Assembly (NCBI GenBank): GCA_049287025.1
Contig: JBAQFA010000009.1
Location: forward strand, 24,802-88,801
Length of the DNA: 64,000 nt
From: Candidatus Magasanikiibacteriota bacterium
Lineage (GTDB): Bacteria > Patescibacteriota > Patescibacteriia > Magasanikbacterales > UBA922
Reading direction: 5' to 3'
The translations under genes were made by a program, and so were the position numbers. The notes beneath the pieces were generated by a model. That model ran no database searches and was not told the origin of the DNA. It saw only the letters and a list, made by a program, of their open reading frames with translations. Positions 4,158 through 61,649 of this stretch are shown in pieces. How positions within the stretch are numbered: the stretch's first letter is position 1; every line of letters starts with the position of its first letter.

Positions 4158-4535
4158 ATGCTAAAACCAAATAACAGACTAACAAAAATGAAAGATTTTG
4201 AGATTCTCTTTAAAGAGGGTAAGTTTGTTAATGGCACTTTATCATCATTAAAGATTTGGAAAATTGAGCCAGAAAAGTATCCTAGACGTAAATACACCCA
4301 AGATGAATTAAGAATCGGTTTTGTGGTTAGTATTAAAATTAGTAAAAAAGCCGTAGACAGAAACAGAATCAAACGGCAAATGAGAGAAGTTGTCCGTCTT
4401 TTAATTAAGGATAATAAGATAAAATCCGGTTTTCATCTGGCTTTTATTACCAAACCAGAGGTCTTGGGTAAAGAATATAAGGAAATTGAAGACGATATTA
4501 TTAAATTATTACGCCGAGCTGATATAATGTTATGA
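4158..4535 (+). CDS. rnpA: Ribonuclease P protein component
   Basis: 125 aa, basic; [16 protein letters not shown] motif; synteny rpmH-rnpA-yidD. Confidence 0.85.
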
Positions 4536-4795
4536 AAAATTTAGTCTACAAAATAATTTATATTTTTAGATTACCATTTCTTTGGTTGATTCGTTTGTAT
4601 CAGAAAACATTTTCACCAGATCATGGACCTTTAAAACATTTTTATCCGCATGGTTATTGTAAGTATTATCCCACCTGTAGTCAGTATGGGTATGAAGTAA
4701 TAAAGAAACGTGGAATTATAGTTGGCGGTTTAAAAACAATATGGCGGATATTGCGATGTAATCCGTGGTCAAAGGGTGGAGTTGATTTACCTTAA
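4532..4795 (+). CDS. yidD: Membrane protein insertion efficiency factor YidD
   Basis: [44 protein letters not shown]; 4-nt overlap with rnpA. Confidence 0.85.
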
Positions 4796-4820
4796 AAATG
4801 TACAGACTATTCTATACAAC

Positions 4821-4861
4821 TGTGGATAACTCTGGGGATAGAGTAACCAAAAAGTGGATAA
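4821..4861. promoter_or_regulatory. DnaA boxes (candidate oriC element)
   Basis: Perfect TGTGGATAA at 4821-4829 and AGTGGATAA (8/9) at 4853-4861, in the AT-rich gap after yidD. Confidence 0.5.
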
Positions 4862-5159
4862 CATTAGGTTTGAAAGCCTAATTTTTTATTTGTATAGGCT
4901 ACTCTATACATACTTATGCACAATTAAAATGGCTTATTTTAGCTAAATTTTGCTTATTTTAGCTAAACTATTGACAAAAGTGGTATTTTATGCTATACTA
5001 TATTCAGTTCCTTCAAAATATAGATATGTTCGATTCGACTTTGTCGAATGGAGCATGTTTCCATCCACTGCTTTTTTACTAGGCTAACTCTTATGAATTT
5101 GTATAAAGTAATCTATACAAATTCCTTAAAACAAAAACAAAAGTTAAAAATGAGAGTAA

Positions 5160-5400
5160 AAGCTAGCCTAGACAGGTGACTCCCACCTTTCATGCATCAA
5201 GGGCTTCACAGCCACACTTGATGTCGGGAGCAAACACCGCCGAGTGGTGGAGGGAATTATACCGTCCCAGTATGACGGCTTGCCTAATCGGGCGTTCTAA
5301 GAGCTTAAAAATTTGAGATCTTGGATTGCCCGAGTGGCGCGTTTCTGGGATTTAAAGGTGGCACGCCACAAAATCACCGGGGCGATTGACCACCTTTTTT
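5160..5400 (+). ncRNA. Candidate structured ncRNA (GC-rich island in AT-rich spacer, ends in intrinsic terminator); identity unresolved
   Basis: About 55% GC, no ORF, many stems (e.g. ccgtcccagtatgacgg; ggtggcacgccac) and a terminal hairpin with T7 at about 5360-5400. The segment GAGCAAACACCGCCGAGUGG resembles the RNase P RNA stretch GAGCAAACCGCCGAUGG, but the P4 consensus was not found. Confidence 0.3.
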
Positions 5401-5560
5401 TATTGCAAAAATACAGACTTACAAATAATCCGACTTAACGGGTGCCAAGCCATATGGATTGGGTTGAGTATTTAAATGTTGACTTTTAATTAACATATGA
5501 TATAATGACGTTCTTATAAATATGTGGTAAAATAAAAGCATATTTTGATTAAATACATAT

Positions 5561-5947
5561 ATGACCAAGACTAAATTTACAAAGACTTTTTTGGATGAAA
5601 TAAAGAAAAATTTATTAGAAGAGAAAATTCATCTGGAATCAGAATTAGAAAAATTTGCCAAGAAAAATTCTCATGCTGAGAATGATTATGATACCACTTT
5701 TCCAGAGTACGGTGATGAAGAGGATGAAAATGCTCGCGAAGTAGCTGATTATACGGCCAATAAACCACTAGAAATTTCTTTGGAAAATACTTTGCGTGAT
5801 GTGGTCAAATCTTTAAAAAGATTGGAAGATAATACTTATGGTTTTTGTAAGTATTGTGATAATCCAATTGAAGAAAAAAGATTATTGGCTCGTCCGACTT
5901 CTAGCGCGTGTGTAAGTTGTAAAAAAACACTAACACAAGAGGCTTAA
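5561..5947 (+). CDS. DksA/TraR family C4-type zinc-finger protein
   Basis: CxxC-x17-CxxC at the C-terminus (CKYCDNPIEEKRLLARPTSSACVSCK); coiled-coil N-terminal part. Confidence 0.65.
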   Translation: MTKTKFTKTFLDEIKKNLLEEKIHLESELEKFAKKNSHAENDYDTTFPEYGDEEDENAREVADYTANKPLEISLENTLRDVVKSLKRLEDNTYGFCKYCDNPIEEKRLLARPTSSACVSCKKTLTQEA

Positions 5948-5997: not shown

Positions 5998-6471
5998 TTG
6001 TATATGAAAAATAAAATCCACCTAACAATTTATATTGTAATCGGTGGATTTTTTTTATTGTTGGATCAGTTGTTAAAATATTTGGCGCGGACTAATTCTG
6101 ATTTTAGTTTTTATCTTTGGAAAAATTGGTTGGGCTGGGAATATTTCCCCAATCCTGGCATTGCTTTTTCTTTACCCGTACCAAATTGGTTAGTAGTTAT
6201 TTTTACGCCAATAATTTTATTAGGATTATTTATTTGGATAAGACGAACACATAACACATATCACATATCACATATCACAAGACAGTTATCACTATTTTTT
6301 ATTATTGCTGGGGCGGTTTCAAATTACATTGATCGCGTATTATTCGGTGTCACTATAGATTATATTCGTATTCTTACTGGGGTAATAAATTTGGCGGATG
6401 TGATGATTGTGGTGGGGGTAGGGTTGTTATTGTTGGATGAAAGATTGAAGAAAATTAATATTAAACTTTAA
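5998..6471 (+). CDS. lspA: Lipoprotein signal peptidase II
   Basis: NPGIAFSLP and SNYIDRV...IDYIRI motifs, 4 TM segments. Contains an in-frame (ACATATCAC)x3 microsatellite encoding HNTYHISHIT. Confidence 0.75.
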   Translation: MYMKNKIHLTIYIVIGGFFLLLDQLLKYLARTNSDFSFYLWKNWLGWEYFPNPGIAFSLPVPNWLVVIFTPIILLGLFIWIRRTHNTYHISHITRQLSLFFIIAGAVSNYIDRVLFGVTIDYIRILTGVINLADVMIVVGVGLLLLDERLKKINIKL

Positions 6472-27584: not shown

Positions 27585-27658
27585 GGGCCGTTAGCTCAGC
27601 TGGCTAGAGCGCTTCCATGGCATGGAAGAGGTCGCAGGTTCAATTCCTGTACGGTCCA
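27585..27658 (+). tRNA. tRNA-Ala (anticodon GGC)
   Basis: GGGCCGT acceptor with G3:U70, anticodon loop AUGGCAU, T-arm GGTTCAATTCC. Confidence 0.8.
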
Positions 27659-28177
27659 CAATATGAGGGGGTATCTTTACTTTATTAGGAGCTGTAATTG
27701 TAAAAGACCTTTACTATCCACTAAATCACTTTTTATAGTGATTTTTTATTTAGGTTTATATATATTATTGTACGACGCATATATATAGCTTTAATTAGTG
27801 TAATAAAACTAAAATTACTACTTAACTACCTATTTTATCCCCTATTTGTTCTTTGTGGAACAATTTCAGTGAACAGTGGCCAGTATGCAGTATTCATAAA
27901 ATACTAAATTATAAAAAATACGTTAGTTTTATTGTAGACTGAAAATTTGGTGTTGTTGTTCTTGCGATCTGATTTGTTGGGAAGCATATTTATAATTAAT
28001 ATGTTCTATGTGGAACAATTATTTATGGTTTATACACAGATAGTGGCACTTATACACAAAAATATCCACTTTTGTGGATATTTGTATAGGATATTGTAGA
28101 CAATAATACAAAATACAATATACACGGAGCAAAATACAAAATCTATGTTGTTGTTTGTATATTGTATTTTGTTTTTG

Positions 28178-28248
28178 TGGACCTAGGCAGAATCGAACTG
28201 CCGTCTCAGCAATGCGAATGCTATATATTACCACTATACTATAGGCCC
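28178..28248 (-). tRNA. tRNA-Ala (anticodon CGC)
   Basis: Reverse-strand GGGCCUA acceptor with G3:U70, anticodon loop UUCGCAU, T-arm GGCAGTTCGATTCTGCC. Confidence 0.7.
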
Positions 28249-28254
28249 GCTTAG

Positions 28255-28326
28255 TGCCCCCAGCATGAATTGAACACACATCTTGTCCTTAGGACGGACC
28301 TGTTCTATCCGTTGAACTATGGGGGC
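28255..28326 (-). tRNA. tRNA-Arg (anticodon CCU)
   Basis: Reverse-strand GCCCCCA acceptor, anticodon loop with CCU, T-arm GTGTGTTCAATTCATGC. Confidence 0.6.
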
Positions 28327-43616: not shown

Positions 43617-43688
43617 AGGTACCGGTGGGAATCGCACCCACGCATAGAGGTTTTGCAGACCTCTGCCTTACTGCTTGGCTACGGTACC
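43617..43688 (-). tRNA. tRNA-Cys (anticodon GCA)
   Basis: Reverse strand GGTACCG...CGGTACC acceptor, anticodon loop CUGCAAA, T-arm GGGTGCGATTCCCAC; preceded by hairpin terminator 43596-43616. Confidence 0.75.
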
Positions 43689-58804: not shown

Positions 58805-60442
58805 ATGACAACCACACAAGATTTGTACAAAATGATCGGAACTGCACAACAGCAGGAAGAAGATAAGGATGACGTTTCAAAATATCGATACGTTATTTAT
58901 GCTCGAAAATCTACAGATGATAAAGAAAAACAAATCAGATCATTAGGTGATCAAATTAAAGAATGTAAGGATTATGCTGAAAGAAATGGACTTAGATGTT
59001 TACCGAAACCAATAACGGAGTCAGAGTCTGCCAAGGAACCAGACATAAGGCCAGAGTTTAAGAAATTAATTGATGACATTAAAAAAGCTAAATATGATGG
59101 TATTTTGGCTTGGCATCCAGACCGTTTGGCCAGAAATATGAAGGATGCTGGAGAGATAATAGATCTGTTGGATAAAAAGATAGTGAAAGACCTAAAATTC
59201 GTAACATTTACGTTTGAGAACAATACAATGGGTAAAATGTTGTTAGGGATGGCTTTCGTGCTGTCTAAGCAGTATTCTGACGCTTTAAGTGATAATGTAA
59301 AACGAGGAACAAGTAGAAGTATTGAAGAAGGTAGATGGTTGAACAAAGCTAAACATGGTTATTATAAAGATCGTAATCAAATACTGCATCCAGATGGTAG
59401 ATTTTTTAATCTGATTGAGAATATTTTTAGGATGAGAATAGATAATAAAAGTTTGGATGATATAGCTGATTATTTGAATGAAAATAGATATTGTTGTGCC
59501 CCACCTTCTAAGAATGAAGCTGACCGTAGCCCATTTCAAATGACCAAACAGATCGTCTCTAAAATTGTGAGAGACCCATTTTACACTGGCATTCTTAAGT
59601 ATGGAGAAAACAAGGTTGATTTAACTGAAATTTATGACTTTACTCCTGCTGTAAGTGTGGATGATTTTCTGAAAATAAACAACTTTTCTGATATTGAAAA
59701 AGCTCTAAAATTAACTGGAAAAATTTATAAAGACAACGCAATCAAGGCAGATTTGATGAGAGGAATGATAATTTGTGGTGAATGTGATGGAAGTATGACA
59801 TCTGGAATTACTCCTAAAAAAACAAAAAATGGTAAAACTAATTATTTTTATTACAGATGTGATAACCCTGTTTGTAAAAATAAAGGTAAGTCTATAAGGG
59901 CAAAAGTAATTATTGACTTTGCCTGTCAATATTTGGAAAAAAACAAATTTACCTCTCATTCTATATATGGGCATTATATCCAAGAAATGAAAAAAGTTGT
60001 AATGGAAAAAGAGAGGTCTCTCATACAAAAAATTCGTTCATTGACGGAGACCAGAGTACACAAAAAAAATCAATTTGAAAAGACAAAAAAATCTCTTATA
60101 CAAGAGACTGACGAAGACATCAAGGGTTTTTTTAAGGAAGATTTGAAACAATTAGAAAAGGACATCAATAATTTAGAAACCGAAATAGATGAATTGAAAG
60201 ATGAGAAAGAAAGAAATAATAGCGTCACGCTGACTTACTCAGAATACCTTGAACTGTTCAATAATTTAGCTGAGCGTATTAAAAAAATAGGCGTTATGGA
60301 AGACCTAAATTTTATAATGAAAAAAATCTTCTTGAACTTTACTATAAAAGAGGGAAAAGTGGCTCTATATACACTAAACTCCCCATTCGGGGAGTTCGTG
60401 AAAGACCGTATTGTCTTGACATGTCGGGGTGAAAGGACTTGA
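58805..60442 (+). CDS. Large serine recombinase (serine integrase)
   Basis: N-terminal resolvase domain YVIYARKSTDDKEKQIRSLGDQ (catalytic Ser), recombinase domain, Cys-rich zinc ribbon (CGECDG...CDNPVC), coiled-coil C-terminus. Confidence 0.8.
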   Translation: MTTTQDLYKMIGTAQQQEEDKDDVSKYRYVIYARKSTDDKEKQIRSLGDQIKECKDYAERNGLRCLPKPITESESAKEPDIRPEFKKLIDDIKKAKYDGILAWHPDRLARNMKDAGEIIDLLDKKIVKDLKFVTFTFENNTMGKMLLGMAFVLSKQYSDALSDNVKRGTSRSIEEGRWLNKAKHGYYKDRNQILHPDGRFFNLIENIFRMRIDNKSLDDIADYLNENRYCCAPPSKNEADRSPFQMTKQIVSKIVRDPFYTGILKYGENKVDLTEIYDFTPAVSVDDFLKINNFSDIEKALKLTGKIYKDNAIKADLMRGMIICGECDGSMTSGITPKKTKNGKTNYFYYRCDNPVCKNKGKSIRAKVIIDFACQYLEKNKFTSHSIYGHYIQEMKKVVMEKERSLIQKIRSLTETRVHKKNQFEKTKKSLIQETDEDIKGFFKEDLKQLEKDINNLETEIDELKDEKERNNSVTLTYSEYLELFNNLAERIKKIGVMEDLNFIMKKIFLNFTIKEGKVALYTLNSPFGEFVKDRIVLTCRGERT

Positions 60443-60497
60443 ACCTTCGGCCTCCTGGTCCCAAACCAGGCGCTCTAGCCAACTGAGCTACACCCCG
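60424..60497 (-). tRNA. tRNA-Pro (anticodon UGG)
   Basis: CGGGGUG acceptor, anticodon loop UUUGGGA, T-arm GAAGGTTCAAGTCCTTT. Confidence 0.8.
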
Positions 60498-60541
60498 TTA
60501 AAGTTATAAAGTTGAAAGTTTTAAAGTTCAAAAAAATAACT

Positions 60542-60617
60542 TGGTGCCGAGGGCCAGGATCGAACTGGCGACACGTGGATTTTCAGTCCACTGCTCTACC
60601 ACTGAGCTACCTCGGCT
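60542..60617 (-). tRNA. tRNA-Phe (anticodon GAA), CCA encoded
   Basis: GCCGAGGTAGCTCAGTGGTAGAGC...CTGAAAA loop...GTTCGATCC...CACCA. Confidence 0.85.
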
Positions 60618-60624
60618 TGTTTTG

Positions 60625-60698
60625 TGGACCTGAGGAGATTCGAACTCCTGACCCCCTGCTTGCAAAGCAGGTGCTCTAGCCAGCTGAGCTACAGGCCC
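60625..60698 (-). tRNA. tRNA-Ala (anticodon UGC)
   Basis: GGGCCUG acceptor with G3:U70, anticodon loop UUUGCAA, T-arm GGAGTTCGAATCTCC. Confidence 0.85.
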
Positions 60699-60825
60699 TT
60701 TTTTAAAAACCCAAAACAAAAGTGGGGATATTATAGCAACTAGTGATATTTTTGTCAATCTTATTCTCATTTATCAGTTTTTATGGTAAAATATAAACAA
60801 TTATTAATAAATTATAAAAATAATT

Positions 60826-61239
60826 ATGGAATATTTATATTTTACTTTACAGATTTTATTAGCCATAGTTTTGGGTGGAGTATTAGGTTGGCAAAGAGAA
60901 AAAATTGGTAAGCCTGCTGGTCCACGTACTTATGCTTTGGTGGCTGCTGGGTCAGCTTTGTTTACTCTTTTATCTCTTTCGGCTTTTGGCACAGTCAATA
61001 CAGTACAGGTGGCCGCACAAATTGTGACAGGTGTGGGTTTTCTTGGGGCGGGAATAATCATTCATCGCGATGGTGGAATTGTAGAGGGTCTCACTACAGC
61101 AGCTGGTTTTTGGGCAGCCGCTGCTATTGGTATGGCAGTGGGGGCTGGTTGGTTGATTCAAGCGGGGATAGCTACTTTATTATTACTAATTATTTTATCT
61201 ATTGATGATCATAAATTTTTAAGAAAGAAAAAGAGATAG
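60826..61239 (+). CDS. mgtC: MgtC/SapB family membrane protein
   Basis: ILLAIVLGGVLGWQREKIGKPAGPRTYALVAAGSALFTLLS...GVGFLGAGII. Confidence 0.8.
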   Translation: MEYLYFTLQILLAIVLGGVLGWQREKIGKPAGPRTYALVAAGSALFTLLSLSAFGTVNTVQVAAQIVTGVGFLGAGIIIHRDGGIVEGLTTAAGFWAAAAIGMAVGAGWLIQAGIATLLLLIILSIDDHKFLRKKKR

Positions 61240-61303
61240 ATTTTAGCTTATTGACAAAAAGTGAACTTATTGTTAAAATAAATTCACTTTTTTATTTAAA
61301 CAA

Positions 61304-61577
61304 GCGGGTATCACCCTCCTTCGTCCATCCTTCGCTAATGCTTCGGAGGACTACGGATGGGCAAGTATAACGGTTATTACCTGCCCGACATGCCTGATGG
61401 CAATCAAGGTAGGTGGGTCCGAGTTTTCTCCCGCCCCGAGGGCGGGATCCCTCTGTGGAGGGACAAACTCATGAAAGAAAATTAATTTTACAATTTAACA
61501 CGCGGGTATCATATATGTTCCATATATAATACTCCTCGTTCGGAAGAGCGAAAATAAATTTTCTCTCTTCACTCACT
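61304..61577 (+). other. GC-rich structured region carrying two extra partial copies of the tRNA-Gly 5' segment (GCGGGTATCA at 61304 and 61502)
   Basis: Copy 1 also has D-loop-like ATAACGGTTATTA and TCCGAGTTTT separated by GC-rich insertions with stable hairpins. Copy 2 shares GCGGGTATCATATA. Confidence 0.5.
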
Positions 61578-61649
61578 GCGGGTATCATATAACGGTTATT
61601 ATCCGAGTTTTCCAAACTCGTGAAAGGAGTTCGACTCTCCTTACCCGCT
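61578..61649 (+). tRNA. tRNA-Gly (anticodon UCC)
   Basis: GCGGGUA acceptor (G1:C72, C2:G71, G3:C70), U73 discriminator, anticodon stem-loop CGAGU-UUUCCAA-ACUCG, T-arm GGAGTTCGACTCTCC. Confidence 0.75.

Follow-up and report, generated by a model that had tools for sequence, protein, structure and literature searches.

The 64-kb window analyzed here, 64,000 nucleotides (nt) of contig JBAQFA010000009.1 from a Candidatus Magasanikiibacteriota bacterium, contains a candidate structured RNA gene in a 765-nt non-coding gap (4796-5560). The genes around it are arranged in the order dnaN and dnaA (both on the - strand), rpmH, rnpA (4158-4535), yidD (4532-4795), the gap, a DksA/TraR-type zinc-finger gene (5561-5947, + strand; hereafter dksA) and lspA (5998-6471); the last two lie outside the RNA and form its context. 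The DksA-like protein is identical to an NCBI protein listed under Candidatus Magasanikbacteria. Analysis of base composition in 100-nt windows revealed a GC fraction of 0.48-0.56 across 5150-5399 compared with 0.22-0.34 elsewhere in the gap, in agreement with an earlier note on this DNA that had described a GC-rich island in low-GC surroundings at 5160-5400. The + strand of 5150-5400 folded with an energy of -95.3 kcal/mol (z = -4.6), and none of 200 shuffled sequences folded as well; the - strand gave z = -2.6. The GC-rich structured stretch is real and goes beyond chance. The multiple stems reported in the same note were borne out both by this folding score and by the covariation found in relatives.

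The RNA gene is predicted to extend approximately from 5006 to 5401 on the + strand (~395 nt), its 5' end being placed from a promoter and its 3' end from the U-tract of a terminator. The promoter (4971-4999, + strand) combines TTGACA, a 17-nt spacer and TATACT with an upstream TG (extended -10), giving 11 of 12 consensus matches plus the TG. The intrinsic terminator (5356-5401, + strand) is a hairpin followed by a U7 (T7 in the DNA) tract at 5395-5401; its outer stem pairs 5357-5361 with 5390-5394 (AGGTGG at 5357-5362, CCACCT at 5390-5395) and its inner stem pairs 5364-5367 with 5381-5384. It was found just as first described (aggtgg...ccacct plus T7), and among 26 window-like sequences the outer stem was 96% paired, with 5/5 pairs changed on both sides, and the inner stem 83% paired. 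While the structured stretch itself was real, its proposed limits of 5160-5400 proved too narrow for an RNA of about 5006-5401, and that interval is predicted to be the 3' part (~60%) of a single transcription unit. The 5' boundary is placed far upstream of 5160 because 5066-5073 forms a long-range helix with 5242-5249, and 5026-5056 is occupied by a hairpin that covaries. Downstream of the RNA terminator lies a promoter for dksA (5479-5506, + strand; TTGACT, 16-nt spacer, TATAAT). Besides the window, 15 or more of the 29 loci listed have a second TTGAC-type promoter between terminator and dksA, and the terminator-to-dksA spacer was not conserved, even in locus L003, where DksA is 94% identical. 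Judged by these signals, the RNA gene is a separate transcription unit with its own near-consensus sigma-70 promoter and its own terminator, from which discrete, stable expression of the ~395-nt RNA would be expected.

Relatives were gathered through homologues of the DksA-like protein, by exact-protein look-ups and a scan of GTDB species genomes (80 loci); nearly all loci from the species scan came from metagenome-assembled genomes of Magasanikbacteria, which belong to the Candidate Phyla Radiation (CPR). A unit made up of TTGACA-N17-(TG)nTAnnnT, a GC-richer stretch, a hairpin and a U-tract was present upstream of dksA in ~76 distinct loci, the TTGACA-N17-TAnnnT promoter standing at the equivalent place in nearly all of them. 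The GC-richer stretch measured 302-497 nt (median 385 nt; GC 0.43 vs 0.31 upstream), and the terminator was separated from dksA, on the same strand, by a median gap of 112 nt. A covariance model, R1, was made from domain P3 and the 3' strand of the long-range helix (both described below); derived from an RNAalifold consensus, it retained 4 base pairs and is fit for detection, not for structure. R1 gave a single match over the 64 kb of the window, at 5171-5257 (51.7 bits, E = 1.7e-10), and one copy, always on the dksA strand, in 67 of the 80 species-level loci, and no match at E <= 0.1 over 615 kb of unrelated loci. Matches obtained with nhmmer and with the covariance model were one per locus and on the + strand throughout. 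The upstream neighbour varied, being yidD in the window, L003 and L008, a thiamine pyrophosphate (TPP) enzyme gene in L005 and L011, and other genes in L007, L010 and L012. In L005, L007, L010, L011 and L012 the RNA lies away from rnpA/yidD but still beside the DksA-like gene. The nearness of rnpA in the window is incidental, because the upstream gene differs among relatives.

Analysis of these relatives revealed a predicted fold that is composed of a 5' hairpin, a three-way junction with arms P2 and P3 closed by the long-range helix, a 3' hairpin domain and the terminator. Pairing was compared with slid controls, which take phylogeny into account, and with shuffles, which do not. Summarized over the elements, 80-86% of cells were paired compared with 29-49% in the slid controls, and none of 500 shuffles did as well. 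The most conserved unpaired element is the 5'-terminal motif AGUUCCUU (5006-5013, + strand), in which G5007, C5010, U5012 and U5013 were invariant in 29 relatives. Hairpin H1 (5026-5056, + strand) pairs 5026-5031 with 5051-5056 and 5033-5039 with 5043-5049; in 29 sequences, 79.9% of its cells were paired compared with at most 45% in slid controls, 65 cells had changed on both sides and 0/500 shuffles reached this level. The long-range helix is formed by a 5' strand at 5059-5073 and a 3' strand, GAGUGGUGGAGGGAAU, at 5242-5257 (both + strand). Its core, 5066-5073 with 5242-5249, was 87-100% paired, and 11/13 pairs of the helix had changed on both sides; in the window, 5059-5065 can prolong it by pairing with 5250-5256. 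A de novo scan for covarying columns and RNAalifold each found the helix CCACUGCUU (5065-5073) : GAGUGGUGG (5242-5250). A first manual model, with a local hairpin CCGCC-GAGU-GGUGG (5237-5250) and a pairing UUUCCAUCC:GGAGGGAA, was overruled by the helix scan and RNAalifold, and was dropped because GAGUGGUGG pairs with CCACUGCUU 170 nt upstream.

The two arms of the junction differ in their conservation. P2 (5079-5171, + strand) comprises a base helix (5079-5086 with 5164-5171), a second helix (5087-5091 with 5153-5157), an AT-rich hairpin (5095-5105 with 5114-5124) and a conserved A-rich tract, AAAACAAAAACAAAAG (5128-5143), that is kept wherever P2 is present. The base helix, scored over 5080-5085 with 5165-5170, was 86% paired and 6/6 pairs had changed on both sides; the domain as a whole is a variable insertion that is missing from L007, L011 and L025. 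P3 (5175-5238, + strand) is built from GGUG (5175-5178) with CACC (5235-5238), CUCCC (5180-5184) with GGGAG (5226-5230), scored as CUCC (5180-5183) with GGAG (5227-5230), and an inner hairpin (5194-5205 with 5210-5224). The GGUG:CACC and CUCC:GGAG helices were 97% and 94% paired, respectively, and GGUG:CACC was replaced by GGUA:UACC and GGCA:UGCC in relatives. RNAalifold, unguided, recovered the long-range helix, the P2 base and P3. For the 5' domain overall (27 pairs in 47 distinct sequences), 86.2% of cells were paired compared with 40-49% in slid controls, 23 pairs and 196 cells had changed on both sides, and no shuffle out of 500 did as well. The transcribed strand is fixed as + because of G-U pairs such as U5069-G5246, which is U-G in 46/47 sequences. 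The A-rich tract of P2 (5128-5143) is also complementary to the RNA's own U-tract (5395-5401), and AAAA/UUUU column pairs were flagged in the helix scan; pairing of these low-complexity stretches could protect the 3' end.

The 3' domain (5262-5351, + strand) forms a long irregular hairpin with a closing helix at 5264-5270 with 5345-5351, followed inwards by 5274-5277 with 5340-5343, 5282-5284 with 5336-5338, 5288-5294 with 5327-5333, 5296-5302 with 5319-5325 and 5304-5308 with 5313-5317. The two outer helices are mutually exclusive with a small hairpin, 5262-5266 with 5274-5278. When all subgroups were aligned by MAFFT over the entire 3' domain, the alignment was poor, with RNAalifold recovering the terminator alone, and covariation was assessed in MAFFT alignments of the window-like subgroup (26 sequences) supplemented by an alignment-free test. 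In its small-hairpin version the domain was 85.5% paired compared with 34-46% in slid controls, and 29/31 pairs covaried. The inner stem, 5289-5302 with 5319-5332, was 89.6% paired (13/13 pairs covarying) and the small hairpin 84% paired (4/5 pairs). The extended closing helix was 71% paired with 5/7 pairs covarying, and 5274-5277 with 5340-5343 was 77% paired, both despite one-column register errors in the alignment. In the alignment-free test the closing helix gave a mean z of -2.2, with 62% of 69 sequences below -2, and is family-wide, whereas the small hairpin was subgroup-specific. Weak support was obtained for a pseudoknot in which CUGGG (5345-5349) pairs with the terminator loop (73% paired compared with up to 58% in slid controls). 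The same intergenic region in dozens of relatives shows conservation and compensatory changes, as the comparative check proposed in the earlier note had sought, and its central claim, that a structured non-coding RNA with an intrinsic terminator at its end is encoded here, is well supported.

The region upstream of the RNA promoter contains DnaA boxes. Two of them, TTATCCACA (4821-4829) and TTATCCACT (4853-4861), are read on the - strand and lie ~150 bp and ~118 bp upstream of the -35 hexamer, respectively; a third, TTATGCACA, is at 4914-4922 on the + strand. With at most one mismatch allowed, the 300 nt upstream of the RNA promoter contained a mean of 3.0 boxes compared with 0.14 in control windows; at least one box was present in 71/71 loci and at least two in 61/71. 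A TGTGGATAA-type sequence (+ strand reading) piled up between -160 and -100, at ~-150 and ~-118, in most of the 71 loci. RNA synthesis would probably be linked to DnaA, because in most relatives the promoter is preceded by two boxes at set distances. The GC skew of the window becomes positive at 2-4 kb, which places this locus at or beside the origin. In L010, L011 and L012 there was no sign change of the skew at the locus and the DnaA boxes were retained; in L012 the skew changes near dnaA-dnaN, ~8 kb away. A reading of the box cluster as oriC was weakened by these three loci, in which the boxes travel with the RNA gene and do not necessarily mark oriC. Instead of oriC itself, the boxes are better taken for part of the RNA's control region or for a DnaA cluster close to the origin. 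A metagenome scan for the box pair at 32-bp spacing (TGTGGATAA-N24-GTGGATAA) returned at least 120 loci (L093-L212); among the matches listed, 116/120 had neither the RNA nor a DksA-like gene. The pair at this spacing is thus common on unrelated metagenomic contigs, and the spacing may be a general feature of DnaA-box arrays.

Other repeated elements were observed in the same upstream region. An inverted repeat, TGTAYA-N8-TRTACA, occurs as TGTACAGACTATTCTATACA and TGTATAGGCTACTCTATACA at 4800-4819 and 4892-4911, one copy preceding the DnaA-box pair and the other following it, ahead of the promoter. In 59/71 loci the 300 nt before the RNA promoter contained one copy or more, and the repeat resembles a site for a dimeric DNA-binding protein. 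Abutting the -35 hexamer, at 4933-4968, are two direct copies of GCTTATTTTAGCTAAA, each with the palindrome TTTAGCTAAA; relatives carry AAATAAGC / GCTTATTT repeats at this position, possibly a regulator site or an UP-like element. The dnaN-dnaA intergenic region (1942-2127) has three DnaA-box-like sites with 1 mismatch each, giving the window two box clusters ~2.8 kb apart that flank dnaA-rpmH-rnpA-yidD. GC skew is negative throughout the region that contains the RNA-dksA-lspA block in L010 and L012, and the block points toward the presumed origin near dnaA/rnpA; a presumably highly transcribed RNA gene would then run head-on to replication.

Known RNA families were searched with Rfam 15. At gathering thresholds, only tRNAs were found in the whole window and seven related loci, and the 64-kb window yielded no rRNA, RNase P RNA, signal recognition particle (SRP) RNA or transfer-messenger RNA (tmRNA) gene. 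Relaxing the cut-off to E <= 10 gave, for the window copy and the diverged copies L041 and L011, scattered noise and no recurring family; RNase P, SRP and 6S RNA, all raised in the earlier note, were not matched in these three copies. Its suggestion that the lack of both an Rfam match and conservation would tell against such an RNA thus met a divided outcome, no Rfam match yet strong conservation and covariation. ARAGORN identified no tmRNA over 4800-5600, in line with the lack of a tmRNA match in Rfam, and a GGAAGCAGC-type SRP helix 8 motif was not seen by eye, no formal pattern search having been made for it. No earlier description of a ~395-nt Magasanikbacteria RNA was found in the literature. 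On these searches the RNA appears to form a family undescribed so far, matching no known one.

A diverged or reduced RNase P RNA, acting with the RnpA protein encoded 700 nt upstream, is very improbable. Its length of ~395 nt is typical of bacterial RNase P RNAs, rnpA is close by in the window, and RNase P RNAs of CPR bacteria are reported to be diverged, being missed by Rfam at default thresholds and detected with RF00010 at low ones (PMC8172020). Against this, RF00010 and RF00011 gave no match at gathering thresholds or at E <= 10 in the window copy, L041 or L011, a search in which matches of about 5-12 bits, the range relied on for CPR genomes in PMC8172020, would escape listing. The family invariants G-N-N-C-N-U-U (5' end), ACUGC, GGUR/YACC and GYGGU have no counterpart of the P4 motifs CR-I (GGAAAGUCC) or CR-V (ACAGAA..CGGCUUA), and AGGAAAGTCC was absent from all 92 loci searched. 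The de novo helix scan reported no P1-like pairing of the 5' and 3' ends; the only long-range helix found joins 5066-5073 and 5242-5249 in mid-molecule, and the 3' end is the terminator hairpin. The segment likened earlier to a conserved RNase P stretch, GAGCAAACACCGCCGAGUGG (5229-5248), spans several elements: the 3' strand of P3 is followed by a junction, CACC and another junction, and the long-range helix then contributes its 3' strand. It resembles the J11/12-P12 stretch of E. coli M1; relatives conserve only ACC and GYGGU within it, the M1-like 19-mer being species-specific, and it is not a conserved block. GACGGCUUG, a hairpin strand in the window, was likewise not conserved in L005, and the five loci in which the RNA lies away from rnpA show no linkage to that gene. 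Magasanikbacteria are placed in class ABY1. Five circular genomes of that class all have an RF00010-type RNase P RNA (PMC8172020), which argues indirectly in the same direction, and the earlier proposal of a reduced RNase P RNA was not upheld. An RNA polymerase-binding RNA like 6S or Ms1, functionally paired with the neighbouring DksA-like factor, is improbable. An independent gene with a strong promoter, a terminator and long helical domains, in strict synteny with a DksA/TraR-family gene, would suit such a role, but no 6S family was matched, the RNA is twice the size of 6S, and its predicted fold is a multi-domain three-way junction and not a rod of about 180 nt with a large central bubble, the internal loops of the 3' hairpin being at most 3-4 nt by inspection of the pairings. 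We give practically no credence to a small protein as the product. The earlier note had seen no open reading frame (ORF) here; two short ones exist, of 46 aa (5176-5316, GTG start, within the RNA gene) and 41 aa (5313-5438, TTG start, overlapping its 3' end), and public gene callers placed ORFs on the homologous region in L010 and L012. Neither of the two matched Pfam, both are frame-broken in the close relative L008 by indels that are not multiples of three (as in the alignment of 5176-5238), the substitutions in the helices are compensatory and not codon-like, and the ORFs called in relatives disagree in frame, length and position.

The RNA invariably precedes dksA on the same strand, at a median distance of 112 nt, and has a terminator at its end, which would also suit a cis-regulatory leader, a riboswitch or attenuator governing read-through into dksA-lspA. 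The mutually exclusive pairings of the 3' domain, both of which covary, are in keeping with such a device, and L060, L065, L090 and L092 have an upstream segment complementary to the 5' strand of the terminator. Across the family, complementarity to this strand was the same as in shuffles (mean z = -0.48, 6/75 sequences below -2), and a family-wide terminator/antiterminator switch was unsupported over these 75 sequences. The alternative pairings leave the terminator stem uninvolved, the spacer past the terminator is not conserved, and dksA appears to have a separate strong promoter past the terminator in the window and many relatives. With a promoter of its own in front of dksA and no conserved antiterminator found, a leader role, including the riboswitch considered in the earlier note, is unlikely. 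Doubtful, though possible, is a function in origin or DnaA control, in which transcription from the promoter aids or insulates origin opening, or the RNA modulates DnaA or initiation; the second version resembles a chromosomal counterpart of plasmid replication-control RNAs. The boxes upstream in every locus, at a fixed position and orientation relative to the promoter, speak for it, as do the placing of the window locus where the GC skew turns positive, beside dnaA-dnaN-rpmH-rnpA, and that of the block in L010 and L012 within ~8-11 kb of rnpA or dnaA. It is countered by the skew at L010, L011 and L012, which does not change sign at the locus, by transcription that is directed away from the boxes, and by seven covarying helices that would be needless for a transcriptional by-product; complementarity to the box region was not found, no search aimed at it having been made.

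Overall, we favor with moderate confidence a separately transcribed, stable, trans-acting folded RNA that is likely part of a ribonucleoprotein and whose synthesis responds to DnaA. A near-consensus sigma-70 promoter would give rise to a ~395-nt RNA that stops at its own intrinsic terminator; this RNA would act in trans as a folded molecule, probably as the RNA component of a ribonucleoprotein specific to the lineage and not as the leader of the next gene, and its synthesis would probably be tied to DnaA, that is, to replication status. The transcription signals, the conserved multi-domain fold, the single copy, its strand and its linkage to DnaA boxes and dksA-lspA are features of the loci themselves; we infer expression, stability, action in trans, protein binding and regulation by DnaA. 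Several points weigh against this reading. The ends and abundance of the transcript are predictions from sequence signals, and its protein partner or target is putative. Sampling was based on DksA, so that DksA loci are seen to carry the RNA, which may also occur elsewhere. The strict dksA-lspA synteny could reflect the cis link or functional link discounted above, and two exclusive foldings of the 3' domain that both covary would fit a regulatory switch or a folding intermediate. The DnaA boxes could serve the origin or a DnaA-titrating cluster instead of the promoter.

A more specific version, in which the RNA, under DnaA control, would act in trans as a regulator linking replication status with another process and possibly feed back on initiation, is put forward tentatively, as a long shot. 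If true, it would be a highly structured, chromosomal equivalent of the RNAs that control plasmid replication, and the first large RNA confined to one lineage to have a defined role in any CPR bacterium. In a weaker variant, the RNA could be the RNA subunit of a ribonucleoprotein or ribozyme unique to the phylum. Structured bacterial RNAs of more than 300 nt are rare, and OLE, raiA, ROOL and GOLLD have each raised questions about what RNAs do outside the universal set. Genomes of Magasanikbacteria are ~1 Mb and hold little non-essential DNA. A single copy was retained in at least 67 species despite these very small genomes, with signals like those of a highly expressed gene, and the RNA offers a concrete, testable way into the biology of CPR bacteria that have not been cultured.

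Compared with known systems, the RNA is closest in kind to the orphan large non-coding RNAs (OLE, raiA, ROOL, GOLLD and HEARO). Like these it is several hundred nt long, has many covarying helices, is restricted to one lineage and forms an independent unit, standing out by its high GC content from AT-rich intergenic surroundings, and its biochemical function is not readable from sequence. It differs from them in matching no Rfam 15 model, in its host (CPR Magasanikbacteria), in its context of DnaA boxes upstream and dksA-lspA downstream, and in a long-range helix closing a three-way junction that is followed by a long 3' hairpin. RNase P RNA of type A (RF00010) is similar in size, has housekeeping-like signals and shares the nearby rnpA of the window and one 19-nt stretch in this species that resembles E. 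coli M1, whereas the P4 pseudoknot motifs CR-I and CR-V, a model match and rnpA linkage in relatives are lacking here and no helix joining the 5' and 3' ends was seen. The likeness to 6S/Ms1 RNA lies in separate transcription, high structure and an adjoining gene for a polymerase-binding factor of the DksA family; the differences are several domains instead of a rod with a central bubble, ~2x the length of 6S and no model match. Terminating riboswitch leaders share the position upstream of a same-strand protein gene, the intrinsic terminator and the alternative pairings. Unlike in those leaders, the downstream gene has its own predicted promoter, the alternatives do not compete with the terminator and no family-wide antiterminator was found. 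Clusters of DnaA boxes outside origins are represented by datA/DARS of E. coli and the DnaA-box clusters of B. subtilis. The boxes described here resemble them in being origin-proximal, not necessarily within oriC and in fixed geometry to a promoter, and differ in that the unit below them is a large structured RNA gene; to our knowledge, no such gene has been described under boxes of this kind.

The RNA gene also allows public annotation to be corrected, since some public records show either hypothetical proteins over the gene or an empty gap of 0.7-1.1 kb. The public gene calls concerned are at 9489-9683 in L010 (64 aa) and 9582-9992 in L012 (136 aa); they belong to no Pfam family and are probably spurious. 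Many contigs with a locus of the Magasanikbacteria type (L015, L017, L021 and many more) are titled 'uncultured Gammaproteobacteria bacterium', and one contig each is titled Candidatus Udaeobacter and Firestonebacteria (L071 and L088 among the loci concerned); like the Gammaproteobacteria titles, these are apparent cases of mislabelling or mis-binning. L088 further contains a masked run of N within the RNA. The closest relative (L003/L004; 532-2116 and 4893-5639) has genes additional to those of the window: between dnaA and rnpA it carries one for a TrmB-family regulator and one hypothetical gene, and past lspA another of the TrmB family. Elsewhere in the window there are eight tRNA genes, at 27585-28326, 43617-43688 and 60424-61649, three of them clustered on the - strand at 60424-60698.

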